DNA of 64,000 nucleotides from a virus (taxonomy: Duplodnaviria; Caudoviricetes), in the IMG/VR virus record IMGVR_UViG_3300037067_026718, positions 93,673 through 157,672 of that record, one strand, 5' to 3'. The position numbers and the translations under genes were made by a program. The notes below the pieces were generated by a model. It was not told the origin of the DNA. It saw nothing but the letters and a program-made list of their open reading frames with translations, and ran no database searches. This document shows positions 1-33,160 of the stretch, piece by piece (the first letter of the stretch is position 1; the number at the start of each line of letters is the position of its first letter).

Positions 1-865
1 GATGCTGGTAGGAAGCATAGTACTGCCCTGGCTGTCCCAGTACCATTGTATGAAAAGCCTTGTTGACATCGAGAGTCGCACCGGCATATGGCGTTATCTT
101 GACATGATAGGCCCACACGACCATGTCTCTTTCGACCGTAGGCCAGATGATGTCGAGGAAGGAAGCGTTTCTCAATGGGTTTCTGGGATGGGACTCAAGG
201 TTGAATGAACTCAGCAGGACTCCGCCGCCTTCTGCTTCAGGCTGCAGTGCGACCTGCAGATCGGACAAGTCTTGAACTGATACCGACACCGATTCTATGG
301 TCATGTCGCTTTCGGTCAACGAAATGTCGCTGTTCAAGATCAGGCAGACATCGGTCCGATAGTCTTCTTCGATGGTGAATGCAGTCCCGTCAAATGAAAC
401 GCAGTACACCGGGATGGCATCGGGTCCCCGCTCGTATTTCTGGGCTACATCAACCCGAACCGACACTTCTTGCTCAGTGTATGAGTCGCTTTCGTCGGGA
501 TAGCCTGGCATGAAAGTGCCGGCCACGGAGTCAGTGACCACTTTTCTGATGATGACGTAGTGCAGACCTTGAGGAGGTACTGTGATGAGGTGGCTCAACG
601 TTACAAGGGTTTCAGGGCACCAGAAATCGTAATCATCGAACACCACGACTCCCACGTCCGAGAGATCGAATTTCCATATACCGGCTCCAGGAACCTTGTT
701 GATAATGGAGAGATCCAGCTTGGCCTCGGGATCGTAACGAGGGCCTGGGCGGGAGCACAGCATACGCATTCTGCGCTTGAGATTGGTCTCAAACGCTGCG
801 CCTGCTCCTTCGAAGTCATCCTTGAGGCTGCCGACAAGCCCTGTCCGAACGATCCGTTTCTTCAT
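1..865 (-). CDS. Partial CDS running off the window edge; probable baseplate/tail-fibre-associated structural protein
   Basis: ATG at 865 just after the stop of the 868-2115 ORF; frame read by hand (MKKRIVRTGLVGSLKDDF...) stays open to the window end; absent from the ORF track because it has no stop; function from synteny only. Confidence 0.6.
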   Translation of the reverse strand, partial: MKKRIVRTGLVGSLKDDFEGAGAAFETNLKRRMRMLCSRPGPRYDPEAKLDLSIINKVPGAGIWKFDLSDVGVVVFDDYDFWCPETLVTLSHLITVPPQGLHYVIIRKVVTDSVAGTFMPGYPDESDSYTEQEVSVRVDVAQKYERGPDAIPVYCVSFDGTAFTIEEDYRTDVCLILNSDISLTESDMTIESVSVSVQDLSDLQVALQPEAEGGGVLLSSFNLESHPRNPLRNASFLDIIWPTVERDMVVWAYHVKITPYAGATLDVNKAFHTMVLGQPGQYYASYQH

Positions 866-16241: not shown

Positions 16242-16626
16242 TTGGTTTTTCCTCTCTCCATTCCTTTATTATACGCGAAGCCTCTCCGGGTTCAAGCCTC
16301 TGGAACGGAGGTAGTCCACCTTCAAGCGGTGCGTTCAATCCCTTGATCCTTATGTTTCTTCCCATGAGGTTGGAATTGAGCACGGCATTCGTAAGCTCTG
16401 TCGCCGATATAATGTAAGAAGTCCATGGCATAAACTTCTCTCTGACTGTCGCTTCCAGCTCTGGAGTCATCCTGGGGCTTGCAGACATAGCCTTGACATA
16501 CTCCCTCTCCTGGTATTTCTGCGTGGCAAAGACAGCAAATTTGAGCTGGAGATCGTTGTCTATCCCTGATCTTCCCCCGCGGTATTCTTCTCCAAGGTAG
16601 AATCCGTACGGGGTTCGGAGAAAAAA
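16234..16626 (-). CDS. Tail assembly chaperone, -1 frame extension (GT-type)
   Basis: Open -1 frame (FFLRTPYGFYLGEEY...) entered at slippery T TTT TTC; ends overlapping the TMP start. Confidence 0.7.
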   Translation of the reverse strand, partial: FFLRTPYGFYLGEEYRGGRSGIDNDLQLKFAVFATQKYQEREYVKAMSASPRMTPELEATVREKFMPWTSYIISATELTNAVLNSNLMGRNIRIKGLNAPLEGGLPPFQRLEPGEASRIIKEWREEKPSG

Positions 16627-17195
16627 TCGAGTGCCTTCACCTTGAAAAGGGACTCGATCTTGCTCATGAAGGCGCCGAGAACTGCAAAAGCGTTTCTCTT
16701 GAGCTCGGGATGCCATTCATCGGCGATGACCTTGGCGGTGTCGTTCAGCTTCGCAACGAAGTCAATACCGGCCTTGGGATCCGATCCGGCGGCAGGAATT
16801 GCCGGGACTTCTACCAGAACGTCATTGATCTTTCTCAGAGACAAGGCCATGATGTAGATCATTTCGGCCTGTCCATCTATCTCCAGCTTGGACCCCGGGA
16901 TAATGTTTTTGGTATCGGGATCAAAAACATCTTTGTAGTTGGTGATGGCCAAGCGCCTGGCTGCAGTGAACTCTTTTCCGAAGAGCGACTGAAACTCCAT
17001 GGTGGTGCTTTTGGCAACCATCTGGTCTCCGCTGTAAACGCGCTGTCCGGTGAGTATTTTGGCAATAGCCTGGTTTTCTTCATCAGTGTTCGTGTCTTCT
17101 GCTTTTTTTGATGCCACGTCCTTACTGACGGCTGCAAGGGCATCCCTTAGAGGCAACCCCGACGCCAGCAGGCTGGTCTTACCAAGTTCCGGCAT
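16560..17195 (-). CDS. Tail assembly chaperone (G-type)
   Basis: Start MPELGK with GGGAGG SD; 211 aa; ends ...KALDFFSEPR...; located between tube and TMP. Confidence 0.7.
   Translation of the reverse strand: MPELGKTSLLASGLPLRDALAAVSKDVASKKAEDTNTDEENQAIAKILTGQRVYSGDQMVAKSTTMEFQSLFGKEFTAARRLAITNYKDVFDPDTKNIIPGSKLEIDGQAEMIYIMALSLRKINDVLVEVPAIPAAGSDPKAGIDFVAKLNDTAKVIADEWHPELKRNAFAVLGAFMSKIESLFKVKALDFFSEPRTDSTLEKNTAGEDQG
16620..16626 (-). promoter_or_regulatory. Programmed -1 ribosomal frameshift site U UUU UUC
   Basis: Minus strand GAT TTT TTC in frame with the chaperone; -1 frame open to 16234. Confidence 0.75.
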
Positions 17196-17368
17196 AATCC
17201 CTCCCTGTGTTGAAAGTGCAAGGGTAAGATGGTCGTTAAGCAAGGGAGAGTCAATGAGGTAAGTAAAAAAAAAGAGACAACCTGCTTCCAGGTACCTGTA
17301 CTGTTATCTTATCTATCTTATAGTTATACCTGATTAAAGTAGTTTTTGGAGAGAAGAGTCTTTGCTGA

Positions 17369-17401
17369 GAAACAGAACGCCCCGGCGGTTTTGCCGGGGC
17401 G
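17369..17401 (-). terminator. Probable intrinsic terminator after the mini-NrdD gene
   Basis: cgccccggc/gccggggcg stem followed by TTCTGTTTCT on the minus strand. Confidence 0.55.
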
Positions 17402-17447
17402 CCCGGGGAGTGCAAGGCCAAAAGGCCTTTGCTTATATAACCAAGGG

Positions 17448-17651
17448 TTAGAGGCGGAGCAAGCTTTCAACCATGTCCTTCTCGGAATGGTTATGCCGTT
17501 CTTTCCATTCTTCCTGCTTGCCTCTGTTCCAGTCCTGGACCGGTCGGTAGTAGCCAACGATCCGCGAGAAGACCTCGCATTTAACGCCCTTGATTTGTCT
17601 TGTTGTTGATGCCTTCTTGACATCTTCTTGCTGCGTAAGTACATTAGGCAT
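17448..17651 (-). CDS. Stand-alone NrdD-type glycyl-radical domain peptide (67 aa)
   Basis: 'KCEVFSRIVGYYRPVQDWNRGKQEEWKER' matches the C-terminal glycyl-radical loop of class III ribonucleotide reductase; AAGGAG SD. Confidence 0.8.
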   Translation of the reverse strand: MPNVLTQQEDVKKASTTRQIKGVKCEVFSRIVGYYRPVQDWNRGKQEEWKERHNHSEKDMVESLLRL

Positions 17652-17790
17652 AAGAAACTCCTTTCTGGAGAATCTCGGGGGATTCAGGAACGACTCGAGG
17701 CGGAAGTTACAGGCTCCCGCCTCGCTTCTTTATCTCACGTCACGGCGTCTGATATTGTCATAGTTCAAGGCATTACCTCCTGAATAGATA

Positions 17791-17817
17791 GCCCCCGCCA
17801 TACAAACGACGGGGGCA
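17791..17817 (-). terminator. Hairpin after the tail tube gene (terminator or mRNA stabiliser)
   Basis: gcccccg...cgggggc inverted repeat just after the tube stop; weak U-tract. Confidence 0.45.
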
Positions 17818-17827
17818 TCATTCATTC

Positions 17828-18430
17828 CTAGCCTTCGATCAAGCCCGGGTCGACCTGATAGATCTCCTGGTACATGATCGATGCGTTCTCGGCTGCCATG
17901 TTGGTTCCGCTCGTCATGCTCAAGCTGTGCCCCGAGATGTAGCACACCTCGAAGAACAGGCCGGCATAGAGCTGCATGCGCATGTCGAACATCAGGAAGA
18001 ACAGACCTGTCGGATTGTTGAACAACTCGGAGTTGACGTTGAAGAAAGCTGATCCGAAACCCGGCTTCCTGAAGAATGCCTGAGCCTCTTCATCGGTAAC
18101 ATCGGGATAGAGGGCTCTCAGAAGGCTGGGACCTGCAAAGAGCATCCTTCCGATGGCAAGAGATCCAGCACCACGGCCCGGCACCAGGAAGTTGCCACGA
18201 GAACCGATCTCGAAGCCTCTCCCTATCTGTTTGCCTTCGCGGTGTCCGAACTGCTGGACAAGACCAACGGTTTTGATGCTGTCCAGATTGGTGTTGTTCG
18301 AGAATACTGGATCACCTACGCAAACAATCGATGACTCGGCATTGATGTGCTTGCCCAGGTAGTCTTCCGCCGAGTCATGGCCTACCCAGCCCTTCCTGTA
18401 TTCCCAGTCCTTCAGCAGGTTGCTACCCAT
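17828..18430 (-). CDS. Tail tube protein
   Basis: 200 aa directly after the sheath; 'FEIGSRGNFLVPGR', 'FFEVCYISGHSLSM...ENASIMY' tube-like pattern. Confidence 0.7.
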   Translation of the reverse strand: MGSNLLKDWEYRKGWVGHDSAEDYLGKHINAESSIVCVGDPVFSNNTNLDSIKTVGLVQQFGHREGKQIGRGFEIGSRGNFLVPGRGAGSLAIGRMLFAGPSLLRALYPDVTDEEAQAFFRKPGFGSAFFNVNSELFNNPTGLFFLMFDMRMQLYAGLFFEVCYISGHSLSMTSGTNMAAENASIMYQEIYQVDPGLIEG

Positions 18431-18441
18431 GGCTTCTCTCC

Positions 18442-21360
18442 TTACACCATATAGATCTTGATGTGACCACCATTGAAGGGCGGCGTTGCCAACCCCTCCA
18501 CTTCCAGAAGAATCAGCGTCCTGTCATCCTCGTCGACCTGGAACTTGATCATGGTCAAGCTCTGGAGAGCGCCCTTTTTGTCGACGATGAAGTTCCTCGA
18601 AGCGGTGTAGATGGTGTTGAGAAGGGCCATGCCCTTCGCATCCAGCTTGAGGGTTCCAACAACCGAGTCGAAGTTGGTGATCAGGACTGTACCAGCGTAG
18701 TCGAACTGGTGAACGATGCTCTGCTCCATGGTATTGACGGATGACATGTCAGTGGTGACCTGATGGATGCTGTACAAGGGCGAGTTTTCGGTGTCCTGCC
18801 ACACAGCCTCGATACCACCCGAGATCAGATGGTCGAGCGTGGCTTCGTCCTTGAAGCCGTCATCGGGCAGCACAATGCCGGTGAAGAAGAAGTTGACCTT
18901 GGCCTTGGTATGGGGCATGCCGACGTCATTGGAGGCTGCCAGCCTTGCGCACCAGTACACCTGCCAGTAGTACGAAGGAACGGTGTGAGTCGCCCCTCTG
19001 TAGGTCCCCTTGAGGAAGTGTGGCCAAACAAGACGGAATGCCCTGTTGGCGTAACCTTCGGCATAGGCTTTGTAGAGGCATGCTTCGTCGTAGGCTGTGT
19101 AGTAAGCGTTGACCACCCGGTAAGTCCAGTCGGTCATGTCGACGTCGGGGGTCTTGCTGTAGAGCGTGAGAGCGTCGGTTGCCACTGTCTTGATCCTCAG
19201 TTGGTCAACCACTTCTCCATCGGCATCGGAAAGCTCGAGATACCCTCCGGCAATAACCTCTGAGTCCACGAAGTCCTGAGTGATATCGGTGAAGACCAGG
19301 TTGTCTTCCTGGCCGCCCGGTACGTCCTGGGTGTCAACGGCCACGTTCTCCGAGATCCTGGGGAACGAACCGTATCCGCAGACCATTCTCGCGGTGTCGG
19401 GATCCCTCATCCAGTTCACGAACAGTTCCAGGAGGGAGTTAATCTGTGTGTTCTGAACCAGTGATACGAAGGAGTAGGCTGTTTCGTACCGGTTGAAAGT
19501 CCTCAGGTAGGTCAATGTCTTGGCCCACTCGGTTTCATCGCAGAGGGAGTTGTCGACGAAAGCTTCGGGGTCGGATTCGTCGGGGCAGGAGATGAAGACT
19601 TCCTCGGCAACCTGCAGCGCCAGCCAAGTCCCAAACGCGATGGGGTTGTCGGGCACGATCGCCTGATTGCCGCCCATGGTGTCGAGCAGATTGGACCGGG
19701 TGACCCGTATGCGGCTTTCGTTGAGGTCCCCCCTGAGGGCGTAGTAACCGACGAAAGCCTTTCCCTTGGCCGGAAGAACGATCTTGTAGTCGACATACTG
19801 AAGGTTCATCATCGCCGGCAAGGAGAACGTGCCGAGAAGAAGGAGTGAACCGTCGTCCTGGAGAGCAACGTAGATGGGATCGCTTGCCGTACCGTCAGCA
19901 CGGTAGAGAACCACCATGGAGTAACCGGTAACAAGCTCCATCTCCGAGAAGTCAACGGTGTCGTCGGAAAGGCTCATGTCCGTCTCGTCTATGACGCCGT
20001 TGGCTGCCCGGGCTACGATCTTGTAGTAGTCGAAGTCGCCGCCTACTTTGTCTCCTGCCAACGGCAATGTACCTTCGACCATAAGATTGGCGGCTACCGC
20101 GGTAATCCTCTTGATCGTTGTAGTGACTCCGTCGTCAGCTCCGCCCGTCATGCCTGAAGCCGTTACAGTGGTTTCAGTGAAGGTGATGTCGATGTTACCT
20201 GCAGCCGAGTTGTTCTGGTTCTCGAGATCGGCCTGTTCGGAATCTACGCCGTTGACCAGTGCGTCGATTTCGAGTGTCGATGCGTTGATGGCGTCAACCA
20301 AATTGGAGATCATCAAGGTGTCATCGTTGACATCTGATGAATCTCTTTCGGTGGCGACCAGGGTATAGCCGGGAGTGAGGTTGGTTCCTGGGATCCCTCC
20401 ACCGGTAAGGCCGGCAACGGTGATGTTGGCGCCGGCTGCGACTATGGCGACATCGCCATCAGCCGAGTGGAAGTTGTTCGCCACGTAGACGTACCCGCCA
20501 CCCGGGGTGCTGACCACGAAGACATCGGATGCCGCTACATGCTGCGCTGTGATTGCGTTGGCAAGGTTGGCCACTGTAGCCGGTATGTCAAGTCCGATGA
20601 GAACCGCTACGTTGCCGGGTCCCACTCCACCGCCGAGACCGTCATCGAACTCGTACGTTACGGCAGGGTCACCGGTACCGTCATCGATGACAATGGTGTC
20701 TCCATCCGCAGGAAGGCCGGTGAGGAGGATAAATCCAGTCGGACGGTTGCCGTGGTCGAACTGGAAGGTGACGGCATGGCCTTCTCCATCCTCTATGTGG
20801 ACGATGCTGCCGTTTACGTATGTGTCGGCGTTGATAACGCCTTCAGCGGGATGGCCAATAGAGAACTGCCTGAGCATCAGGTAGTCACCTATCTTGGCGT
20901 CGGTGTCAGTGCTGAATCCTACGGCCAGACTGGAATCCTGGAACTCAGAGGCTCCGACTCTCCAGTCGTAGGCCGGATCTCCGGAAGCTTCCACTTCGTC
21001 CTTGACCGGGGTTGTGGTCTGGTCGGAAGTCACGACCACGATTCCGTCTTTGATCGTGATGGAATCTCCCGTCACTTCCCAGTTGTCACCGTCTTCGTCA
21101 GGTATGATTTCCTCTTTGCCGTTGGCGTCGAGAACGATCTTTACTGTGACTTTGCTCGGTATCACAGTTGCCTGATCCATGATGTCCGGAATCGCTGCCA
21201 CCAGGTCAGAGCTTCTGTCGTAGTCACCGATGTAGGCTCCAGTTTCAACCTGGGCCAGGTGACCTACAAGCTGGAGTCTCAGAGTCGACGGAAACCTCAC
21301 CCTGGGGGTGGAGGCGTCAATGAACTCCATCGACATATGCGGTCTGCGGTAATCACTCAT
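18442..21360 (-). CDS. Contractile tail sheath protein with a nested domain insertion
   Basis: 972 aa; C-terminal sheath features ('DNPIAFG', 'RLVWP', 'LDHLISGG', 'HQVTTDMSSVNTMEQSIV..DY', 'PFNGGHIKI'); precedes the tube. Confidence 0.8.
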   Translation of the reverse strand: MSDYRRPHMSMEFIDASTPRVRFPSTLRLQLVGHLAQVETGAYIGDYDRSSDLVAAIPDIMDQATVIPSKVTVKIVLDANGKEEIIPDEDGDNWEVTGDSITIKDGIVVVTSDQTTTPVKDEVEASGDPAYDWRVGASEFQDSSLAVGFSTDTDAKIGDYLMLRQFSIGHPAEGVINADTYVNGSIVHIEDGEGHAVTFQFDHGNRPTGFILLTGLPADGDTIVIDDGTGDPAVTYEFDDGLGGGVGPGNVAVLIGLDIPATVANLANAITAQHVAASDVFVVSTPGGGYVYVANNFHSADGDVAIVAAGANITVAGLTGGGIPGTNLTPGYTLVATERDSSDVNDDTLMISNLVDAINASTLEIDALVNGVDSEQADLENQNNSAAGNIDITFTETTVTASGMTGGADDGVTTTIKRITAVAANLMVEGTLPLAGDKVGGDFDYYKIVARAANGVIDETDMSLSDDTVDFSEMELVTGYSMVVLYRADGTASDPIYVALQDDGSLLLLGTFSLPAMMNLQYVDYKIVLPAKGKAFVGYYALRGDLNESRIRVTRSNLLDTMGGNQAIVPDNPIAFGTWLALQVAEEVFISCPDESDPEAFVDNSLCDETEWAKTLTYLRTFNRYETAYSFVSLVQNTQINSLLELFVNWMRDPDTARMVCGYGSFPRISENVAVDTQDVPGGQEDNLVFTDITQDFVDSEVIAGGYLELSDADGEVVDQLRIKTVATDALTLYSKTPDVDMTDWTYRVVNAYYTAYDEACLYKAYAEGYANRAFRLVWPHFLKGTYRGATHTVPSYYWQVYWCARLAASNDVGMPHTKAKVNFFFTGIVLPDDGFKDEATLDHLISGGIEAVWQDTENSPLYSIHQVTTDMSSVNTMEQSIVHQFDYAGTVLITNFDSVVGTLKLDAKGMALLNTIYTASRNFIVDKKGALQSLTMIKFQVDEDDRTLILLEVEGLATPPFNGGHIKIYMV

Positions 21361-21369
21361 GGTATCCTC

Positions 21370-21966
21370 CTAAGGCCCACGTACTTCAATTCGGACGACT
21401 GGAGCGTCTCTATGGTAAACATAATGTTCGCTTGTCTCGACTCTGAGCAGCACCGGTACATCCACCAACTCCATTCCTGCCTTTTCATCCTTTATTGTAC
21501 TCGCTTTTCCCTCGCTGTCAAAGGTGATGCTTCTGTACCTTCCGAGGGCATAAAGCTCATCCTTGTGAAAGCGGAAGATCATGCGTACGTACTTGGCCAC
21601 TATCTCGGCGATGAACTTGTCATGGTGGAGGCAGTGGATAACGATCGGGCTCAGATCGGAGAACATGAATGAAGTCTTTGCTTCTCTAAAGTCGTGGTGT
21701 ACAAGGTTCTGATGGAATGCCTGATATCGTTCTCTCTGCTGAAGAGCTTCGACCACAAGATGAACCGCAGAGCGCTGCTTGAGGGTTTCCTGGGAAAGAG
21801 AGTCTTCGAACCTGACAAACAGAGTGGATCTCTCCGGGCTATCCGGAATTGCCAGAAGGTCCATCGTCTTCCCCGGACCTATCTCGATCGACCTCTGTCT
21901 TTGGAAGAAACTCTCGAGGAAATCCGCAAAGTCCTCCTTGACAGTCTCCTTGGTCATCACAGGCAT
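21370..21966 (-). CDS. Putative tail terminator/neck protein
   Basis: 198 aa immediately before the sheath; synteny. Confidence 0.45.
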   Translation of the reverse strand: MPVMTKETVKEDFADFLESFFQRQRSIEIGPGKTMDLLAIPDSPERSTLFVRFEDSLSQETLKQRSAVHLVVEALQQRERYQAFHQNLVHHDFREAKTSFMFSDLSPIVIHCLHHDKFIAEIVAKYVRMIFRFHKDELYALGRYRSITFDSEGKASTIKDEKAGMELVDVPVLLRVETSEHYVYHRDAPVVRIEVRGP

Positions 21967-22049
21967 CTGGTAGCACTACCTTTCCGCTGGTCCATACGAT
22001 CAGGGATCCAGGGGCGACCATTTGCAGGTCACCCCCGGATCTCCTATCC

Positions 22050-24881
22050 CTAAGCCTCTTCGACGACGACTGTCCAGCCATTGATCTCAAGGGCTGCCAT
22101 AGCGGCCAAGCCTGTCGCACTCGGCACGGCATTGCCGCTGAGGTCGATGTAGCAGGGATCCACGACACCGTCGTCGGTACCATTCTCCATTCCGGTAGCG
22201 GTGATGGAAGTACCTGCTTCAGTAATGACCACGTTCCCGGCTGCTCCACCGTGCTGGTTGACAAGGTCGATGACCAACGGGCTCAGCTCCCGCACAAGAG
22301 CATCAATGTCAAGCGCGGAGAGGTTGATGGCATCGCAGAGGTTTGAAGTCGTTTCCTCTTCGTTGGCGGTCATGATCACAGGAATGTTCGGGGCTACCAC
22401 GTTGTCCCCGGGATCCACTCCGCCGGACATCCCAACGAGCTGAAGATTGGCGCTCGTGGTTGTCATCAGTACGTTGCCTGCCTCGAGGTAAGCCGAGTTC
22501 TTGAGGGAACAGACATTGAGAAGACCTCCGGCTGCATCGAAATCAAGATGCCCCAGGCCGGCCTCAGCATCAATCGCAGCTCTGAGGGCAACGCAAGTAG
22601 CGTTTCCGATCGTCGAGTCCGCTCCTCCAGCCAACCCGACTACATCGAAGGTTGTACCGACCTCAACCATGGGAACGTCACCGGCCACTCCCGGAACGTC
22701 GTGCGTGATGTTGAGCTGTTCGTCGTCGACTCCATCTACTTCCGATGTAATACTGATACCAGCGGCATTGATCGCCGTGTTCAGAGCTGATATGACAGCA
22801 GCTCCGTCAATTGCATCTGCCTTGCTTCTTTCAACAGCGATCAGGACATTGCCTTCGGTTACATTGGCCCCTGGAGCCGCTCCGTTGGAAAGGCCTACGA
22901 CGCTGATGTTGACGCCGGAGCAAGTGATGGCCACGTTGCCGTCTTCGCTGTGGAAGTTGCTTATGAGTTGGATGGTGTCGTCTCCAGCAACAGACGCTGC
23001 CCATACTTCCGATACATCGGATGAAGAAGCCAGATCGATGGCTGTTTGAAGGTTGTCTCTGGTCCCGGCGAGAGTACCGGCGATGAGTACTTCAACATGG
23101 CCGGGGATGATGCCTCCGCCGTCATCAAACTCGTATGTCAGGGCTGGGTTGACGCCGTCATCAATCGTAATGGTATCTCCTGCCGACGGGATATCAGCAA
23201 GGGTTATGTGGCCAGTAGGCCGGTCTCCATGATCGACCTGGAACACCACCGCAGGCACAAGACCATCCTCTACCTGAACAGTATCGGCATTCTGGTAAGC
23301 GCCATAATTGATCGTACCGCTTGAATGGACGGCCGATGATCCCGGAGTGATTGCTACGGCAACATGGCCTGGCTCAACAGCAGCATTGTCATCGAACTCG
23401 AACACCACTGGGTCGTTGACTCCGTCATCTATGGTGAGGATCTCACCATCACTGGGATTTGCTCTGTTACCGACGAGGTCTTCCAAAGTGATGGATCCAG
23501 TAGCCTGAGTACCTTCATCAAGCTCGAAGGTTTCTTCGATGCCTTGACCGTCGTCGATGGTCACTGAATCACCCGTGGTGATGTTACCGGTGTTGAGGGT
23601 AAGCGTTCCGTTGGCATGCACGGCCAGTGTTCCGGCCATGTCTTCCAGGATATCGTCGACCATGGCTTCAGTGAGGCCGAGGTCCTTGAGGCTCATGTCC
23701 CATCCACCGTGGCCGCTCCAGTCACCGCCGTCGGTATAGGCATCCACAGCGCATCCGTCGAGGACGAAAATGTATCCATCCGCAGCCGCCATGTCGATGA
23801 GATCCGCCACGTCTCCTTCGATGAGGGACCCCGAGATGTCCAGGTAGGTATTGAGCGGGGTTGCAGCAATGATGGCCGCGAGATCTCCTTCGACCTGAGT
23901 GCCTCCAAGATCAAGGACAAGAAGCTCATCCATCGCTGCCGTCATTGTTTCTGCCGAACCGATGAGAGTAACGCAGCCATGAGCCAAGAAAAACTGCATG
24001 GCTACCAATGTGGCAAGGTCGGCAGCGTCGCCTTCAATGGCACTGCCATCCATTCGAAGGTCTGTCATCGCTGTATACCCTGCGAGGTTGACAATGTCGC
24101 CTTCGATCGCGGTATCAACGATGTTGAGCTTTGTGAGGGCTGCGGATGCCGTTCCGCCAAGGGATGTCAAATTACCCACCACCTGAGTTCCCTCGAGGTC
24201 GATTTCCCTGAAACCTTCAAGCAAGGCAAGCTCGCTGATGTTGCCGCGGATGTTGCTGTTGGAGCAGTCGAGATAGCAGAGTTCTTCGACCTCGCTTGCT
24301 CCCCTCAGCGTGGTGCCGAGGAAAGACCGTATGCCGGAAAGGTAGAGGGAGATGATGCCGGCTCCTTCGTTGACAGCCGCAAGGGCTTTCATTCCTCCGG
24401 AGATCACTGTCCGGGTGCCGTTGACGTGGAGGGTCTCCAGCAGCGGAAGCTTTGTCAGGACTCCCAGATCGAACCTCACCACTGCCGGGGTTTCCCCGGA
24501 GATGTTCATCTGGATGCCGGTCACTATGGCATACTCGCCGCGGATCCTTATGGGGAACACGCCGGATGACCGGTAGTAATGAGTAACGGTCATGATCGCG
24601 TCATCAAAGACTGCGGATGTTACAGAGGCATCTCCCCATTCAATGGTGAGCTCAGTGCCGTCGTAATCCGGAGACGGGCTGAAAAACCTGAATGTGAGAG
24701 GAACCACCATTCCTTCGCCTTCGACTTCCACGGCATCGGCCATGTCGACGTCTGCACTGCAAAGGCTGGCGCTGATCAGATCGATCTGCTCCCGCCTTTT
24801 CCTGTTGCTCTGGTTTCTGGAAATGAATGATTCCCTGACAACAGGGAACCGTGGAGATGCGTAAATGTCCCGGTCACTCAT
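22050..24881 (-). CDS. Leucine-rich-repeat virion protein with an N-terminal PKD-like domain and four nested repeat domains
   Basis: Start MSDRDI with GGAGG SD; 'IEWGD..THYY' PKD-like; LRRs of LxxLxLxGTxIxGD type; acidic 'IDDG..FEFD' repeats. Confidence 0.7.
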   Translation of the reverse strand: MSDRDIYASPRFPVVRESFISRNQSNRKRREQIDLISASLCSADVDMADAVEVEGEGMVVPLTFRFFSPSPDYDGTELTIEWGDASVTSAVFDDAIMTVTHYYRSSGVFPIRIRGEYAIVTGIQMNISGETPAVVRFDLGVLTKLPLLETLHVNGTRTVISGGMKALAAVNEGAGIISLYLSGIRSFLGTTLRGASEVEELCYLDCSNSNIRGNISELALLEGFREIDLEGTQVVGNLTSLGGTASAALTKLNIVDTAIEGDIVNLAGYTAMTDLRMDGSAIEGDAADLATLVAMQFFLAHGCVTLIGSAETMTAAMDELLVLDLGGTQVEGDLAAIIAATPLNTYLDISGSLIEGDVADLIDMAAADGYIFVLDGCAVDAYTDGGDWSGHGGWDMSLKDLGLTEAMVDDILEDMAGTLAVHANGTLTLNTGNITTGDSVTIDDGQGIEETFELDEGTQATGSITLEDLVGNRANPSDGEILTIDDGVNDPVVFEFDDNAAVEPGHVAVAITPGSSAVHSSGTINYGAYQNADTVQVEDGLVPAVVFQVDHGDRPTGHITLADIPSAGDTITIDDGVNPALTYEFDDGGGIIPGHVEVLIAGTLAGTRDNLQTAIDLASSSDVSEVWAASVAGDDTIQLISNFHSEDGNVAITCSGVNISVVGLSNGAAPGANVTEGNVLIAVERSKADAIDGAAVISALNTAINAAGISITSEVDGVDDEQLNITHDVPGVAGDVPMVEVGTTFDVVGLAGGADSTIGNATCVALRAAIDAEAGLGHLDFDAAGGLLNVCSLKNSAYLEAGNVLMTTTSANLQLVGMSGGVDPGDNVVAPNIPVIMTANEEETTSNLCDAINLSALDIDALVRELSPLVIDLVNQHGGAAGNVVITEAGTSITATGMENGTDDGVVDPCYIDLSGNAVPSATGLAAMAALEINGWTVVVEEA

Positions 24882-24977
24882 GATTTCTACCTCCGTTTTC
24901 TGGGCCGCAGGGCCCAACTGCTTACAATGGGCACGCCTTCATTGTACTCGTTTTGGAACAAAAGGCCAGTGGCCATA

Positions 24978-25826
24978 TCAGTCTTCTTCACGCGAGAAGT
25001 CTGGTATGATCTTGCTGCTGTCTCTTGTCTGTTTCCATCCCCTGTTTTCTCTTTTCTGCACGGCATCATACAAAGAAGGAACGCTCAGCTTGTATGTGGC
25101 GTCATCACTGGGGATCCTGTTGCCTGTGAATATCTGCCGAAAAGGAAACCCCTTCATATCGGTCACATTGATGCCAGGGGCTATTTCCCACCTTATCCCC
25201 ATGCTGTCTACAATGAGATCCTTGGCCTTGAGGAGAGGATAGTTGGTCGTCCACATTCTGCGGGAATCAATGGGGATCTCTACGCCGGCGTAAACCATTC
25301 TTGTACTGTTGAGGTTGGACTTGGCAATAAAGCCAAAAATAGGCGTGTAGTAGCCTCCAGCGACTCCCGTGCCATAACAGACATCGCAGGTTGAGGTAGC
25401 GCCGCCACGGCGTCCACAGACGGGGCAACGAGGCCCCCAGGTCCTTCGGATGAAAAAGTGAGCCGGCTCTCCTACAGTCCTGAGAAGAGCCTCGAGTCTT
25501 TTAACCATATGGAGGGCTGCCTTGATAGGCTGGATCATAAATGTGGTTGGATCGCTTTCGTGCGAAACAGTAGTTGTCTCACTGGTTACAGAGCATTTTA
25601 CTTTATAATAAAGGCGCCTAAGATACTGAGTAGGATCAATTGAAAAGTCTCTGTAGTAATTGTTGTCGCCGAGCGGTACTGAGTCCAACTCCGTCCAAGG
25701 TCCCTCCGGGGATTCAGACCTTGAGACAGTGATAACGGCTTCACCGGGAGCAATGTCCTCGATGCACCATTCTATCTCTACATGGTCTGCATGCAGCGGA
25801 AGGACCCTGACGTCGTAGACTTTCAT
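24978..25826 (-). CDS. Putative head-closure/neck protein with an FN3-like N-terminus and Zn finger
   Basis: 'CPVC...CDVCYGTGVAGGY' CxxCxGxG motif; position after the adaptor. Confidence 0.5.
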   Translation of the reverse strand: MKVYDVRVLPLHADHVEIEWCIEDIAPGEAVITVSRSESPEGPWTELDSVPLGDNNYYRDFSIDPTQYLRRLYYKVKCSVTSETTTVSHESDPTTFMIQPIKAALHMVKRLEALLRTVGEPAHFFIRRTWGPRCPVCGRRGGATSTCDVCYGTGVAGGYYTPIFGFIAKSNLNSTRMVYAGVEIPIDSRRMWTTNYPLLKAKDLIVDSMGIRWEIAPGINVTDMKGFPFRQIFTGNRIPSDDATYKLSVPSLYDAVQKRENRGWKQTRDSSKIIPDFSREED

Positions 25827-26254
25827 GTTATGGATAACCCAGATACAAGTTGCCTGTTGATGCTCTGGGCTGTCTTGTACGTCTCGGCCCTCTTGGATGC
25901 CCGGGCGTAGATATCTGCCCTCATGGCCTGGAGAACCTGTATTTTCCGGCTGGAGTCCAGCATGATCTCGCCACCGGTTACATACGCCTGATCGTTATGG
26001 ACAAGCACAAAGATGAGTCTCTCTATGACCCTTGCCAAAGCGTAGTCCAGCAGTATGGAACGGGCAGGCATCGTCTTCAGCGTGTATGTGGTCGGAGTGG
26101 TCTCGATGTTGAAGTCCTCCAAAGCGTCTTGCAGCGCTTCGTGCATGACTTCCTCACCCAAAGCCACCCCGTCTTCCACGTTGTTGTAATCGGGGATGTC
26201 CATGAGGCGAGACCGCAGCCGACCGACTAGATCGTCAGGTCGTTTTGCCGGCAT
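25823..26254 (-). CDS. Putative head-tail adaptor
   Basis: 143 aa helical protein two genes after the MCP. Confidence 0.45.
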   Translation of the reverse strand: MPAKRPDDLVGRLRSRLMDIPDYNNVEDGVALGEEVMHEALQDALEDFNIETTPTTYTLKTMPARSILLDYALARVIERLIFVLVHNDQAYVTGGEIMLDSSRKIQVLQAMRADIYARASKRAETYKTAQSINRQLVSGLSIT

Positions 26255-26263
26255 GTGCTCTCC

Positions 26264-26932
26264 CTACTGGTTGGTCGTAAGAACGATGGCTCCGTAGTAA
26301 TCCATGGTTTTCTGCAGCAGCTCGGTCCAGGGCTCTGCGCCGTTGGCTTCCTTTATCCTGGCCTCGAAAGCCTTGGTGACGAAGTCCACGATGTCAGCTT
26401 TCTTGGTGAGCTGCTTGTCGATGTCGATGGCGTACTCTTCCGCAAAAGCTTTGATCTCTTTTACGGTGAGCTTGGCAAAATGCTCACTGGTGTCCATGAT
26501 GCCATCGTTTTCCCCGGGAGCGATGGGCTCCTTTTCAGGCTCGATTGCTTCTGTCGGAGCGACCGTTTCCGCCTGGCGTTCTTCCCGCTCTTCGTCGGCG
26601 CCCATGTCTACGATGCCGGCGAGGTCACTTATGGAAGTGGTCTTCCTGAGCTTCTGGGCTTCGTCAACCTCTTCCTTCTCGATCGTTTCCTCGATGGCCT
26701 TCATCTCTTCACGGCTCTTCGCCCTCTTGAGAACGGAGTAGTTGGCCGAAGAAGGTTTTTCAACGACGGCTGTCTCGTTCTTCTCGGCATCAATCTCTTC
26801 CTGCCGGGACTTGAACCTGGTTACGCTCGATGGATACAGGGATTTCTTGGGACGTGCAGGCGGATCGGCAACCGGAGTCCTCATGGAGCGTCTGTCGGTG
26901 CGTCCCACTCTTTTCATGCGTTCAACTGACAT
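26264..26932 (-). CDS. Acidic protein with a Rho-N/HeH-like motif
   Basis: 'AKLTVKEIKAFAEEYAIDI..LTKKADIV' motif; such genes often follow the MCP. Confidence 0.5.
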   Translation of the reverse strand: MSVERMKRVGRTDRRSMRTPVADPPARPKKSLYPSSVTRFKSRQEEIDAEKNETAVVEKPSSANYSVLKRAKSREEMKAIEETIEKEEVDEAQKLRKTTSISDLAGIVDMGADEEREERQAETVAPTEAIEPEKEPIAPGENDGIMDTSEHFAKLTVKEIKAFAEEYAIDIDKQLTKKADIVDFVTKAFEARIKEANGAEPWTELLQKTMDYYGAIVLTTNQ

Positions 26933-26957
26933 TGTTGTTTCCTCTCTGAGAGACGGC

Positions 26958-26978
26958 CGGGGGGGCAGAAGCCCCCCC
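26958..26978 (-). terminator. GC hairpin after the major capsid gene
   Basis: gggggggc-agaa-gccccccc inverted repeat just downstream of the MCP stop. Confidence 0.5.
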
Positions 26979-26993
26979 TGTGAAGCCGTTTTT

Positions 26994-27929
26994 TTATTCG
27001 CTGAACTCGACGTCCACGTAAGCGCAGGCGTAGACGTTGAAAACGCCCGACCCGGTCAGCTTCTTGCCCATCATGGTGATGTCTTCGAGGTCGGTGTCGA
27101 TCATGACCTTGGTGTCGCCATCGGGAAGCACGTAGTTGGTACCGCAGAACTTCTTCGCGGTAAGCGAGACGATGCGGTTCTTGGGGAAGTGCTTCATGCT
27201 GGTGACGATGAGGCGCCTGCCGAAGAGGGTGGTGGACTTCCAGCCCTCTTTCATGGTCTCCCAGGTGCCGATGTTGAGATCGGTTTCGTCCATGGTCTCG
27301 GCTTCGTTCAGAAGCCATTTGTGGATGATGGTGATCTCGGAGAGCAGCTCACGAACCTGCGGGTCGTCGTGTGCCGGTCCACCGCCATCGATGTACTGGT
27401 TGGGGAGCATCAGCGTGCGCTTGTTCAGGCCGCTGATGGTGGCGACATCGTGGTAACCGGTGTAGTCGGCGGCGGCGTAGATCTGGTTGAGCCACATCTG
27501 GTCCTGGACCTTGGCGATGTAGAGCGCGATGTTCTCCTTGAACTCGTCTTTCACGGAGACATCGAGCATCCTGAGCTCGTCGACCTTCTTGTGGTACTCC
27601 GGGGACTTGATCGGTCTGATCGGAGTTGCGAACTTCCTGTTCTTGATGAATTCACCGTTGGGGTCGCCATCAAGGTTGGTGTCGACGGCGGTGAACTCAT
27701 GTGCGAACCTGTCAAGAACGTAGAACGTGTCGTTCTCGAGCGCTTCCTGAATCCTGATGGGGTTGTGGTCGGGTTCGAAAGCGGCATCCCTGATGGAATT
27801 CTCGAGGATGTTCTCGCGGAGAAGATCGCTCTGTTCCTGAGCTATCTTGACCCTTTCACTGGGATCCTCAATCCTCTCCGCGAAGAGAGTGTTGTAGATC
27901 CTGTTGTCGATGCTGGGATCATTTGGCAT
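26994..27929 (-). CDS. Major capsid protein (HK97-like fold)
   Basis: 311 aa; strong C/G third-position codon bias, AAGGAG SD, 3' hairpin; 'IALYIAKVQDQMWL' spine helix and 'TLFGRRLIVT' motif; canonical position. Confidence 0.75.
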   Translation of the reverse strand: MPNDPSIDNRIYNTLFAERIEDPSERVKIAQEQSDLLRENILENSIRDAAFEPDHNPIRIQEALENDTFYVLDRFAHEFTAVDTNLDGDPNGEFIKNRKFATPIRPIKSPEYHKKVDELRMLDVSVKDEFKENIALYIAKVQDQMWLNQIYAAADYTGYHDVATISGLNKRTLMLPNQYIDGGGPAHDDPQVRELLSEITIIHKWLLNEAETMDETDLNIGTWETMKEGWKSTTLFGRRLIVTSMKHFPKNRIVSLTAKKFCGTNYVLPDGDTKVMIDTDLEDITMMGKKLTGSGVFNVYACAYVDVEFSE

Positions 27930-27980
27930 TTTCAGCTCCTTCCGTATCTGAAAGCCTGAGTTTCACTTGCATTCACCGCT

Positions 27981-28505
27981 CTAGGTCAGTGTCATCTGGG
28001 AGGGCACGTCGGAAAGTCTGACCTTCATCATACCGTTCTCCACACCGGCCACCGCGGGGACGAGAACGATTCCGTACACGAAGGCCATGTTGCTGCCGTC
28101 AACCAGCTCTATGGCCGGGCAAAGCACACCGTAATCGGCGGTGTCGCCGGCGGCTGCACGCACGGCGCTCTGGTCGAATGTCCAGGCCAGGGGCATGCCC
28201 GAGAAGTACGGGTCGCCGGCGGGAGTCTTGAACATGTCGGTCCAAAGCTCGATGGGAACCTTGGCCATGGTGGCCTTGCCCGTGATCGCCACGTCGCTTC
28301 TGGTCGCGGTGTCCTGGTGGTTGACCCAGATGATGTAGGGATACTCACCCGGAGTGATGCCATCAGCACCCAGGCTGAAGACGGCTTCGCCGTCGGCATC
28401 GGCTATGATGATGCCGCCCTCGCCTTCGAGAAGGTCGGCATCGGTGTCATTCATCCTGACGCCTTCCAGCTCGTACATTTTCTTCCTGTTCACGATCTTC
28501 ATCAT
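27981..28505 (-). CDS. Putative head decoration/minor capsid protein
   Basis: 174 aa beta-rich, highly biased codons, directly upstream of the MCP. Confidence 0.55.
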   Translation of the reverse strand: MMKIVNRKKMYELEGVRMNDTDADLLEGEGGIIIADADGEAVFSLGADGITPGEYPYIIWVNHQDTATRSDVAITGKATMAKVPIELWTDMFKTPAGDPYFSGMPLAWTFDQSAVRAAAGDTADYGVLCPAIELVDGSNMAFVYGIVLVPAVAGVENGMMKVRLSDVPSQMTLT

Positions 28506-30475: not shown

Positions 30476-33160
30476 TTACTTTCCGATGGGACGCAACCCC
30501 TCGAAAGACTTGTATGCACCGCCCAATCGGACGGCTGCGATTTTGGGATCTTCCTTATCGTTGTAGCTCCCTTCAGCGTACTCCTTTATTCTTGACTGAC
30601 AGGCAACTACGAGGTCGGCTCGTTTGTAGAACTCATTCTGCCAGTCGGTGTTCATGAAGGTGGCAACCACATGTTTGGCGTAGTCGCTTGAAACCATGGG
30701 GGCGCCATGGGCTACTTTCTCCATTGAAGCTGTTTTCTGCCTTGTCAGGTCGAAGCGAGGTAAAAAAGAACGGACAGGCAGGAATGGAGCAAGCAACTGG
30801 GCGACCTTGTAGTTGTAGGCTACTCTCCGCATGGGGACGTTCTTCACCGATGCCATCTTGGGGGACAGCATGATGGTAACGTGCTTCTTGATCACGATCG
30901 CCCTGGGCTTGTCACCGCTTTTGAGCGCATCGATGACAGCGTATTCCTTGGGCATGACGTGCATCCCCATCAAGCCAGCCGTATCGAAGATGTCCTCGAA
31001 AGGATGCGATGCCAGTGCTTCGCATGTCTCCATCGGAAGCTCCGGAGTAATGGCGTCCTGGTAGCCCTCGGACTCCTTTTTGTCCTTGCTTTCCACGGAG
31101 ACATCGGCGGTTATGTCTTCAGGGGAAGCTTTTTCTATTTCAGCTTCCTTGCTCTTGGCTGCTTCCTTGAAGAAGAGTGCTCCTGCATCGGCAGAGAAAC
31201 CGGTGAAGTATACAGTTGTTCCTATGCCGGCAGCCTTGTTGAGCTCCTGGATGACATTGGTTCCTTTGTCCGCTCTGGTGAAGACGAAACTCTGGTCGAA
31301 GAAAGTCGGCTTTGTGTTGTGAACGCAAGTGATCCTTCCCCGGTTCGCCATGTCGTTGTAAGGATGGAACTGAAGAAGATGGTTCTTCGCGTGGTCACAG
31401 TACTCGGCCCGGGTCTTGGCTTTCTTGCCGCAGATGGAGCAGACGTCATAAGGAACCCTGCAGTTGTGAACAGCGATGCCATCCAATAGATAACTTTCGT
31501 CGTCAGAGACAGCAAAGTTATAGACATCATCATCATATGGAACAACTTCATTCTCCTCAACAGGCGTAATGAGATACAGGACATCGTCTATCATGGAAAA
31601 GAATCTCTTGTTGTTTATTGTCTTCGATCTTCCCAGTATATGTGATGACCGGTGAAGTCGATACGCTGTATCGGTTCCAATCCATATCTGATACTCTATA
31701 GTCTGCTTGCGTACCAGAGATCGTGGGCCCGGCTTATGAACTATGACATTAACAGAAGAGATCATCATACATCTAAGCAATATGATTTGTAGTTGCTTTG
31801 CAAGCTGGAAGGATGCTGTTGATAGATAGATGGAACCTTGATAGCAACCACCATCTCCATTAGCGTAAGCTCCCAAAAACTCTTGGAGGCTTTCTTCCTC
31901 AGCACCCATAATCGATGATGACAACGTCTTGCTGGTAGAGCCAACACCGCAATGTTCAATGCATAGTTCGGTAAAAGACCGATCATAAATGGTGATGTAC
32001 TTACCATTTCGCTCTTCGATGTCACGCTCTGTGACAGAAGTGAACCCCATACGCTCTGCTAAAGACAGTATTTCTTGATGTATAGATGTCTCATGCAAAC
32101 CTGTGCAGAATTGCACAGCCATGGGAGTTCCAGCCTTTGTATAGAGAGGACATCCTTCGGCTAGATAGTACCCCAAAAGGCGGCTTTCGTCGACAGAGAA
32201 TTTCCTTGCAGCATCAAAAGTAGGTACTGGCGTTAGTAGGCGATCACCTATATCTACTTCATCAGCTCTGATCCATTCTGGCCTATATTTTATTTGTGTT
32301 TTGCAGGAAACGCAGCCTGACTTAATAAAAGGGCTATCTGGAGTACAGACCTGCTGACGACGTCCGCGGTTTATGTCGTTACTAGATGGTTTGCATAGAA
32401 TTTGGTCAGATCTCAGAACCAAGAGGGGATGTTCGTCTGTTAGAATGAGAGGATCACGGTTTCCATATACTTTGATATGATGAATATTGCCCCGGTGTTT
32501 ACGTACCATTGTTGTAGTGACGGATTTCGGTACTCCTCTATGCGTTATCACTTTGTCACCAGAGGAGATTGTTTCGATGGGAACGTATTGACCATCGGAA
32601 GATAGAATCATTGATCCCTTTGGTACGCAGCCCATGCTGACATCCGGAAACTTGCCGCTTCTGATCCTGGCTATGATCTCGATCGACTTGCTGATGTCTT
32701 TGTCCAACCTGGATATGACCTCGATCCTGTGCATCTTGAGGTTGTAGCCCGTGGCTATGACCTTGCCAATACTCAGCTTTGGATCGCTGTTGTTATGAAG
32801 CAGGAAGGGATGGGCGTTGGTGAAAGTCCTGTAGTAACCATCATAGTAGATGTTCTGCTCTGGGAAGCTGTCCCCGTTGTTGTTGGGGCCGTAGTACTCG
32901 AAGGCCGACACGATGTTGATGTGAGTGTAGACATGCTTGTCGAAGTCGGGGTCGCAGTCATGCCAGAACTGGGCAAGCTCGTCGGGCATGACAGACAGGT
33001 CCATAGTGCTGTCCAGATCGGCTGATGCCATCTTGGCCATCGATTCCCTGGAAAGCAAAAGATGCATCCTGGGGCTGCCGAGAGGGTCATGGCTGCCAAC
33101 GTTGACCAGTTTGATCATTCCGCCATCGGTTGGCATCGTCATCAGTACCTTCCGCTCCAT
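30476..33160 (-). CDS. Putative prohead maturation protease interrupted by an intein
   Basis: 'NNNGDSF', 'FLLHNN..SIGKV' (His), 'DVSMG|CRVPYDVCSICG..YCDH' (Ser plus Zn finger), 'FFDQSFV..AD'; upstream of scaffolds and MCP. Confidence 0.7.
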   Translation of the reverse strand: MERKVLMTMPTDGGMIKLVNVGSHDPLGSPRMHLLLSRESMAKMASADLDSTMDLSVMPDELAQFWHDCDPDFDKHVYTHINIVSAFEYYGPNNNGDSFPEQNIYYDGYYRTFTNAHPFLLHNNSDPKLSIGKVIATGYNLKMHRIEVISRLDKDISKSIEIIARIRSGKFPDVSMGCVPKGSMILSSDGQYVPIETISSGDKVITHRGVPKSVTTTMVRKHRGNIHHIKVYGNRDPLILTDEHPLLVLRSDQILCKPSSNDINRGRRQQVCTPDSPFIKSGCVSCKTQIKYRPEWIRADEVDIGDRLLTPVPTFDAARKFSVDESRLLGYYLAEGCPLYTKAGTPMAVQFCTGLHETSIHQEILSLAERMGFTSVTERDIEERNGKYITIYDRSFTELCIEHCGVGSTSKTLSSSIMGAEEESLQEFLGAYANGDGGCYQGSIYLSTASFQLAKQLQIILLRCMMISSVNVIVHKPGPRSLVRKQTIEYQIWIGTDTAYRLHRSSHILGRSKTINNKRFFSMIDDVLYLITPVEENEVVPYDDDVYNFAVSDDESYLLDGIAVHNCRVPYDVCSICGKKAKTRAEYCDHAKNHLLQFHPYNDMANRGRITCVHNTKPTFFDQSFVFTRADKGTNVIQELNKAAGIGTTVYFTGFSADAGALFFKEAAKSKEAEIEKASPEDITADVSVESKDKKESEGYQDAITPELPMETCEALASHPFEDIFDTAGLMGMHVMPKEYAVIDALKSGDKPRAIVIKKHVTIMLSPKMASVKNVPMRRVAYNYKVAQLLAPFLPVRSFLPRFDLTRQKTASMEKVAHGAPMVSSDYAKHVVATFMNTDWQNEFYKRADLVVACQSRIKEYAEGSYNDKEDPKIAAVRLGGAYKSFEGLRPIGK
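31463..32629 (-). mobile_element. Intein with LAGLIDADG homing endonuclease (389 aa)
   Basis: Block A 'CVPKGSMIL', block B 'LTDEHPLL', LAGLIDADG-like 'LLGYYLAEG' and 'FLGAYANGDG', block F 'DVYNFAV', terminal 'VHN' followed by Cys+1; visibly lower GC. Confidence 0.93.

Follow-up and report, generated by a model that had tools for sequence, protein, structure and literature searches.

Four copies of one small domain, very probably nested one inside the other, in a putative leucine-rich-repeat protein of a tailed phage

How are four copies of a single domain arranged in one polypeptide when their N-terminal halves all come first and their C-terminal halves all follow? This question is raised by a protein with putative leucine-rich repeats (LRRs) encoded on the minus strand of a 64,000-nucleotide stretch of DNA from a tailed phage (IMG/VR record IMGVR_UViG_3300037067_026718, positions 93,673 to 157,672 of that record; hereafter, the window, with coordinates counted from its first letter). 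A reading made from the letters and their translations only (the sequence-only reading) had proposed that, behind the LRRs, each copy is inserted within the previous one. Our answer is that residues 437-913 of the protein are, with high probability, four copies of one beta/alpha domain of ~110 amino acids (aa), recursively nested. The gene is as follows:

22050..24878 (-), gene of the LRR and nested-domain protein, 942 aa (P0003), in its database form starting at the ATG at 24878

The program-listed open reading frame (ORF) is longer, spanning 22050-24917 (-) with its 5' end at a TTG at 24917, and residue numbers follow this 955-residue ORF (P0001); window positions 22179-23618 (-) correspond to its residues 434-913.

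Along the chain, the block is made up of three N-fragments, one complete copy, and three C-fragments of the ~110-aa domain, in the order A1-A2-A3-D4-B3-B2-B1. Each of these pieces was matched by an independent profile built from 184 contiguous copies in other proteins, from which the window proteins and their orthologues had been excluded to avoid circularity; its E-values are single-sequence E-values. The pieces and their profile matches are listed here:

23499..23609 (-), A1, level-1 N-fragment, strands 1-3, cut at site 1, residues 437-473 (alignment and profile); profile match at residues 437-474, profile positions 2-38, E 1.6e-8
23319..23498 (-), A2, level-2 N-fragment, strands 1-4 including "PGHVAVAI", cut at site 2, residues 474-533; profile match at residues 484-528, profile positions 7-50, E 1.4e-17
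23214..23318 (-), A3, level-3 N-fragment, cut at site 1, residues 534-568 (alignment and profile); profile match at residues 535-565, profile positions 3-34, E 6.5e-5
22881..23213 (-), D4, innermost copy, complete and contiguous, residues 569-679 (profile and model); profile match at residues 569-678, profile positions 2-108, E 7.8e-30
22623..22880 (-), B3, level-3 C-fragment, beginning with strand 4, residues 680-765 (alignment and profile); profile match at residues 684-765, profile positions 34-109, E 5e-15
22419..22622 (-), B2, level-2 C-fragment, beginning at the helix and lacking strand 4, residues 766-833; profile match at residues 772-833, profile positions 50-109, E 1.7e-10
22179..22418 (-), B1, level-1 C-fragment, beginning with strand 4, residues 834-913 (alignment and profile); profile match at residues 836-912, profile positions 32-108, E 1.1e-17

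A self dot-plot (BLOSUM62, residues 401-955), which the sequence-only reading had suggested as a check, contained four N-half diagonals (~437-473, 479-529, 532-567, and 569-618) and, after them, four C-half diagonals (~654-696, 735-770, 808-850, and 883-918). When aligned, the N-halves read G.I.L...GD.I.IDDG....FEFD and the C-halves NL..AIN.....(strands)..GNV.I......V.G..GG. Since the independent profile cuts the protein into seven matching pieces, at E-values from 6.5e-5 to 7.8e-30, we take the order A1-A2-A3-(complete copy)-B3-B2-B1, which had been read from the letters by eye and which the dot-plot also bears out, to be real and far beyond chance.

The pairing of the fragments was judged from where they stop and start. 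In profile coordinates, the ends and starts of the putative pairs are complementary (A1/B1, 2-38/32-108; A2/B2, 7-50/50-109; A3/B3, 3-34/34-109), and strand 4 (PG.V.V.I) occurs once per level, being found in A2 and not in B2, and in B3 and B1 and not in A3 and A1. This strand-4 pattern is symmetric in the window protein, so that it rules out four of the six pairings and leaves two, nested and fully crossed. In an asymmetric relative, P0100, whose N-fragments stop at profile positions 45 and 31 and whose C-fragments begin at 33 and 46, nested pairing gives a misfit of 1 and crossed pairing one of 27. Additionally, identity to the orthologue P0004 falls in step for the two halves of each pair (A1 97% and B1 91%, A2 78% and B2 79%, A3 63% and B3 63%; D4, 76%); the halves of each nested level appear to have diverged equally, a result that fits nested pairing, whereas crossed pairing would join 97% with 63%. 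The linkers between levels comprise 0-6 residues on the outgoing and returning strands alike, according to both the sequence and the independent profile. Rather than failing to pair as proposed, an outcome that had been put forward as fatal to the idea, the halves are favored by these tests as A1:B1, A2:B2, and A3:B3.

The same arrangement was found in three dimensions in the second of two AlphaFold2 models, which covers residues 340-955 (model residue i being ORF residue i+339) and was built on an alignment of 56 rows, checked for register, in which relatives range from 1 to 7 levels. Its mean predicted local distance difference test score (pLDDT) is 85.6 and its predicted template-modeling score (pTM) 0.64, with the block (model residues 95-575) mostly above 90 in pLDDT. 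An unbiased VIA-align structural search with this model across 48,161 chains gave matches whose model ranges, in 50 of the 50 matches listed, fall into four concentric classes, with no crossed range among them:

model range ~225..343, D4, 9 of the 50 matches
model range ~189..429, A3 to B3, 20 of the 50 matches
model range ~129..497, A2 to B2, 8 of the 50 matches
model range ~93..578, A1 to B1, 13 of the 50 matches

Each match aligns no more than 58-102 residues, in most cases with an unbroken stretch of 90-125 residues of the solved chain, and a further structural search with the model agreed. Ranges of 240-480 residues in which ~90 residues align at a root-mean-square deviation (rmsd) of 2-3 Å imply a discontinuous matched domain that passes over the inner levels. 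Discontinuous domains were what the sequence-only reading had expected of an AlphaFold model, and the predicted model has them, in four concentric levels; together with profile complementarity and the matched divergence of the halves, they sustain its claim that each copy lies within the previous one.

Judged from the model, the unit, in which four strands are followed by a helix and then by four to five more strands, appears to share its fold with the protruding domain of phage tail sheaths and with the outer domains of FliD and flagellin. The closest solved chains were the sheaths of cyanophage A-1(L) (8kee_A, residues 91-184; Z 10.5, rmsd 2.0 Å, 90 residues aligned), Milano (8foy; Z 9.4), phage Mu (9khy_a, residues 99-215; Z 9.0), and PhiTE (9cb9_A; Z 8.6), the nozzle domain of T7-like phages (7ey7; Z 8.4), T4 gp11 (residues 80-189; Z 8.1), Pseudomonas aeruginosa flagellin FliC (4nx9; Z 8.1), and the D3 or head domains of FliD (Z 7-8, ~95-100 residues aligned). 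While Z scores of 7-8 would be weak taken alone, the sheath matches exceed them and agree with the fact that many sequence relatives are themselves sheaths. A profile search of PDB sequences gave no significant match that would have identified a solved relative by sequence.

Several points weigh against this interpretation. The three-dimensional evidence is a prediction, in which topology was read from the first and last aligned residues and discontinuity from the aligned length. The alignment supplied to AlphaFold was itself concentric, though it carried no pairing information as such, and the first AlphaFold2 model, of the full-length protein on an alignment of six orthologous sequences, reached a mean pLDDT of only 39.6. 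Automated counts of balanced A/B strings among relatives were noisy and too insensitive to fragments of 30 aa, and they were not used as a statistic. Stepwise growth in the LRR host is undocumented by any orthologue with fewer levels. Finally, we infer the virion location of the LRR protein from its place in a tail module and from the sheath-protrusion fold.

How widespread is the domain, and does it occur by itself? A profile of the window's own pieces, run on 1.84 billion representative proteins, retrieved 1609 clusters at E<=1e-3, of which 431 reach E<=1e-10. In many of these clusters, proteins of 91 to 164 residues among them, profile positions ~2-106 are matched in one piece, from which it follows that the unit is an autonomous domain of ~105-110 residues. 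The domain has no Pfam or PHROG model, judging from searches with the window protein and its relatives. Flagellin_IN (PF07196) scored below threshold in 3 of 56 relatives (best E 0.0059, 17.2 bits against a cut-off of 22.7), at the helix with the "AIN" motif in single-domain relatives, and gave no match on the window protein. Neither tblastn of the protein on 50,697 phage records nor a scan of IMG/VR viral contigs with the protein returned a relative.

A fragment-aware scan of 48 relatives found with the block as query and of the 150 best matches of the profile search revealed 1 to 7 levels, tandem arrays, and mixed forms. Three copies in the nested form AADBB characterize a family of ~870-aa proteins with sheath Pfam domains (PF22671 in 8, PF17482 in 3), and four levels (AAADBBB) the six orthologues of the window protein and P0055; five levels are present in P0015 and in P0052, which at 614 aa is nearly all nest and has the same length as the top BFVD match, A0A6J7VL40, and seven in P0009. 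Rhodobacter phage RcTitan, which has the domain, is also among the BFVD matches. Copies in tandem only (DDD) occur in P0012 and P0019 (from a Haliangium genome), and giant proteins of 2.5-8 thousand residues carry tandem copies at ~100-aa spacing. Among the latter, P0056, P0079, P0120, and P0174 (2,867-6,111 aa) have arrays in which the matches end near profile position 80, the last strands being divergent. We rejected such "A-only arrays" as a sign of an autonomous N-half, the copies in the giant proteins being tandem whole domains. The sheaths P0024 and P0031-P0033 show a mixed A[D][D]B form; they and P0018 (sheaths of ~870-890 aa) are ~45% identical overall and have three copies at the same place, arranged there either as nested AADBB or as a host copy with two tandem inserts. 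In P0070 and P0187, a third insertion site after the helix (near profile position 60/72) replaces the two sites of the window protein. The search for homologues with zero to three nested copies, which had been suggested as a further check, thus had a divided outcome: relatives with fewer levels exist in the family, and no LRR protein with 0-3 levels was found, all six orthologues being four-level. Similarly, of the proposed "extendable stalk," the evolutionary part stands, given that levels vary from 1 to 7 among relatives, but the LRR host protein has four in all six orthologues.

When, and from what, was the array assembled? No long DNA repeat was found in the LRR gene or in the neighboring sheath gene described below, and the lack of such a repeat in the gene indicates that the copies are old. 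Identity among the four levels is 25-36%, while orthologues compared level by level are 43-61% identical. In a maximum-likelihood tree of the reconstituted levels with ultrafast bootstrap (UFBoot) support, orthologues of each of the split levels (L1-L3) cluster together (UFBoot 95-99), and these level-specific orthologues likewise point to an old array. In the same tree, L4 clusters with an inner copy of the sheath (UFBoot 94), and L1 and L3 cluster with the split outer copy of the sheath (UFBoot 98).

The sheath in question is encoded by a neighboring gene, with the LRR gene lying two genes upstream of it and every gene of the window on the minus strand:

18442..21360 (-), predicted tail sheath gene, 972 aa (P0002), from the structure match of its C-terminal residues 510-972
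20140..20841 (-), two-level nested module (A, complete copy, B) in P0002, residues 174-407 (alignment and profile)

The Atlas model of P0002 residues 510-972 matched sheath clusters (template-modeling score 0.53-0.62 by query), among them clusters in which Phage_sheath_1/1C is present in 92-100% of members (0.53-0.55 by query, 0.59-0.77 by row). Pfam and PHROG searches with P0002 gave no match, and hhalign of P0002 with a sheath alignment gave a confident match over the nested module only. This module is collinear with the LRR protein (38% identity over 362 aa, E 8e-57), and we regard it, on that alignment, the profile matches, and the tree, as homologous to levels 3 and 4. In the genome studied (a bin of 295 contigs), the LRR gene and the sheath gene are the only carriers of the domain. 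P0002 residues 97-173 and 408-441 align further with A1/A2 and B2 of the LRR protein, and a faint match of the independent profile lies at residues 97-108; these segments may be a degenerate third, outer level.

The tree groupings and the collinear alignment indicate that at least the inner half of the array is a module common to both neighboring genes. The array would thus have grown at least partly through reuse of a pre-nested two-level module held in common with the adjacent sheath gene. As simple unequal crossover yields tandem copies, nesting requires a two-breakpoint event, and a copy might have entered its own loop through double template switching or through insertion of a copy.

With respect to the host protein, the following parts flank the block:

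24468..24878 (-), N-terminal part, residues 14-150, predicted by the weak first model to be beta-rich
23610..24467 (-), putative LRR region, residues 151-436, from the pattern read in the sequence and LRR_4 at E 8.7e-4
22053..22178 (-), C-flank, "..CYIDLSGNAVPSATGLAAMAALEINGWTVVVEEA", residues 914-955, conserved 98%/83%

In the first AlphaFold2 model, pLDDT values of 60-82 in the N-terminal part were confined to approximately residues 50-110. The LRR region reads as ~11 units of 23-26 aa each with the pattern L..L.L.G..I.G; the LRR_4 match on the host part (E 8.7e-4, 19.9 bits) lies under the Pfam cut-off of 27, nothing else in Pfam or PHROGs matched the LRR protein, and Atlas leads from the host part to viral LRR clusters reached only 0.85-0.87. 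A search for block-free or shorter relatives of the LRR part gave only one fragment of 54 aa. The N-flank of the block, "LKDLGLTEAMVDDILEDMAG", is the end of the LRR region and is conserved 96% relative to P0004. The block had been said to split a cap motif between these two flanks. In favor of this claim, conservation along the protein is highest in the flanks (identity to P0004 96% and 98%, to P0006 91% and 83%), set against 40-63% identity for the pieces of the block, a contrast that fits two parts of one conserved unit. On the other hand, both flanks were modeled at pLDDT 40-65 in the second AlphaFold2 model, and the C-flank, although it looks like the ninth LRR unit by eye, did not resemble it significantly when local alignment was compared with shuffles (z 1.2). 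The C-flank may be one more LRR-like unit closing the host domain, and the block may just as well be described as inserted ahead of the last LRR-like unit.

We propose the following architecture. On its way out, the chain would form the first strands of level 1, then of level 2, then of level 3; it would build the complete level 4 at the tip and then return via the remaining parts of levels 3, 2, and 1, such that the three outer domains would each be assembled from two distant segments and the two ends of the block would be neighbors at its point of re-entry into the LRR host. The inserts would occupy two permissive loops, one after strand 3 (levels 1 and 3) and one after strand 4 (level 2). 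The links of 0-6 residues suggest that the block is a fairly stiff side arm or stack; because of the location in the tail module and the fold of an outward-facing sheath domain, we infer that this arm would be exposed on a tail or neck protein. Its length would change by gain or loss of matched fragment pairs, leaving the host domain undisturbed.

An alternative that we consider unlikely grants that the nesting is real but holds the block to be a neutral, inherited decoration, with all function in the LRR part. The retention of exactly four levels by all six orthologues, the lack of recent DNA repeats, and a domain function left unassigned by Pfam and PHROG searches are compatible with such a relic; however, all levels are intact with their own orthologues, at 43-97% identity, which argues for purifying selection on all four, and the family recurs on sheaths and on baseplate-like and other virion proteins. 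Considerably less probable, to our mind, is that the N-halves and C-halves are two separate small domains, four "A" in tandem followed by four "B," all contiguous. While the linear order AAAABBBB would allow this, and while the giant proteins looked like "A-only" arrays on first classification, the matches concerned span profile positions 8-80 at ~100-aa spacing, as expected of tandem whole domains with a divergent end. Moreover, at least 184 copies have A and B joined in a single contiguous unit, the fragment ends and starts are complementary with strand 4 exactly once per level, and each level of the model matches single solved domains across its insert. Least credible of all is an interlocked bundle in which the halves pair crossed or swapped (A1 with the first C-half, A3 with the last): the strand-4 pattern (short, long, short / long, short, long) is symmetric and suits either order, but divergence would then pair 97 with 63 and 63 with 91 (97/91, 78/79, and 63/63 under nesting), P0100 is compatible with nesting only, no structural match covers a crossed range such as 98..426 or 195..574, and linkers of 0-6 residues on both strands favor concentric stacking.

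As for the genomic setting of the nested protein, ten large genes near the LRR gene (window 9377-28505, minus strand; products of 311, 282, 143, 198, 200, 1180, 894, 849, 372, and 402 aa) were searched in Pfam and PHROG, and only the 894-aa protein matched (intein/HINT and two PHROG families of unknown function). Encoded at 30476-33160 (-), this protein has subthreshold matches to Intein_splicing, PT-HINT, and Hint_2 at residues ~178-568 and, in the same stretch, a LAGLIDADG_3 match of 27.4 bits against a cut-off of 22.5; it probably represents an intein within a head-module gene. We read the region 9377-28505 as a very divergent tail and head module. The window belongs to a 4.85-Mb bin of 295 contigs that is 95% complete and 6.4% contaminated (contig C3, 93673-157672), and the window ORFs that were read all resemble phage structural genes; the source contig would be either a binned phage or a large prophage.

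How does this arrangement compare with known nested proteins? In the T4 sheath protein gp18, domain I is inserted in domain II, II in III, and III between the termini, and the outward-facing domain is exposed and not needed for subunit contacts (PMC3004832). Sheaths resemble the block in a chain that goes out and returns: the outer domains are discontinuous, and the tip domain, exposed on the surface of the tail, is contiguous. The repeated domain of the block, in turn, has the sheath-protrusion fold, and many of its relatives are sheaths (PF22671, PF17482). Unlike the block, which is one domain self-nested four times, the nested domains of gp18 differ in fold and occur once each, and the host is an LRR protein in the window protein but the sheath itself in the known sheath systems. 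The flagellin of Geovibrio thiophilus has a domain D4, related to D2 of FliD, and one loop of D4 contains its inserted duplicate, D5 (PMC11532411). Here, as in the block, a domain has been inserted in a loop of its own copy, at the surface of what in flagellin is a helical polymer, and the fold class is the same (FliD, Z 7-8; FliC 4nx9, Z 8.1). That flagellin has two levels, whereas the window protein has four and its relatives up to seven; it is also flagellar, whereas the window protein is from a phage, Flagellin_IN remaining below threshold in relatives and missing from the window protein. In cyanobacterial RNA polymerase, the beta' insertion Si3 contains eight sandwich-barrel hybrid motifs (SBHMs), four of them formed from distant segments (PMC10895346). 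Like the block, Si3 is a long arm of one repeated small motif, located in a loop of a host domain, with several copies made discontinuous by fold-back of the chain; the SBHM fold and its function are unrelated, the host is a cellular enzyme, and the arrangement is mixed rather than strictly concentric.

Nesting is therefore not a new principle, being already established in sheaths, flagellins, and Si3 of RNA polymerase, and the sequence-only reading overstated its case in calling it an unusual way to lengthen a structure (PMC3004832, PMC11532411, PMC10895346). What is new is the depth to which one domain is nested (four levels, with seven among relatives), its occurrence in an LRR host, the sharing of a module with a sheath, and how large a family without a Pfam model is; our literature search found no paper describing such a four-deep self-nested phage domain. 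One small domain, self-nested four times here and seven times in relatives, is still predicted to fold confidently, as judged from the four-level model. A large family of phage surface domains without a Pfam model gains names and boundaries, and proteins of this kind will be missed or wrongly split by annotation pipelines in which domains are assumed to be contiguous. The two permissive loops, which follow strands 3 and 4, would be natural sites at which to display foreign domains on sheath-like scaffolds, and through the shared two-level module an accessory LRR protein of the tail or neck is connected with the surface of the sheath. More tentatively, and with rather more doubt than confidence, we speculate that the domain serves phages generally as a surface scaffold and is extended by inserting itself recursively at two or three fixed loops, with pre-nested modules swapped between virion genes and 1 to 7 or more levels tuning the reach of tail-surface proteins. 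If true, this would constitute a principle for setting length that differs from both tandem repeats and coiled coils.

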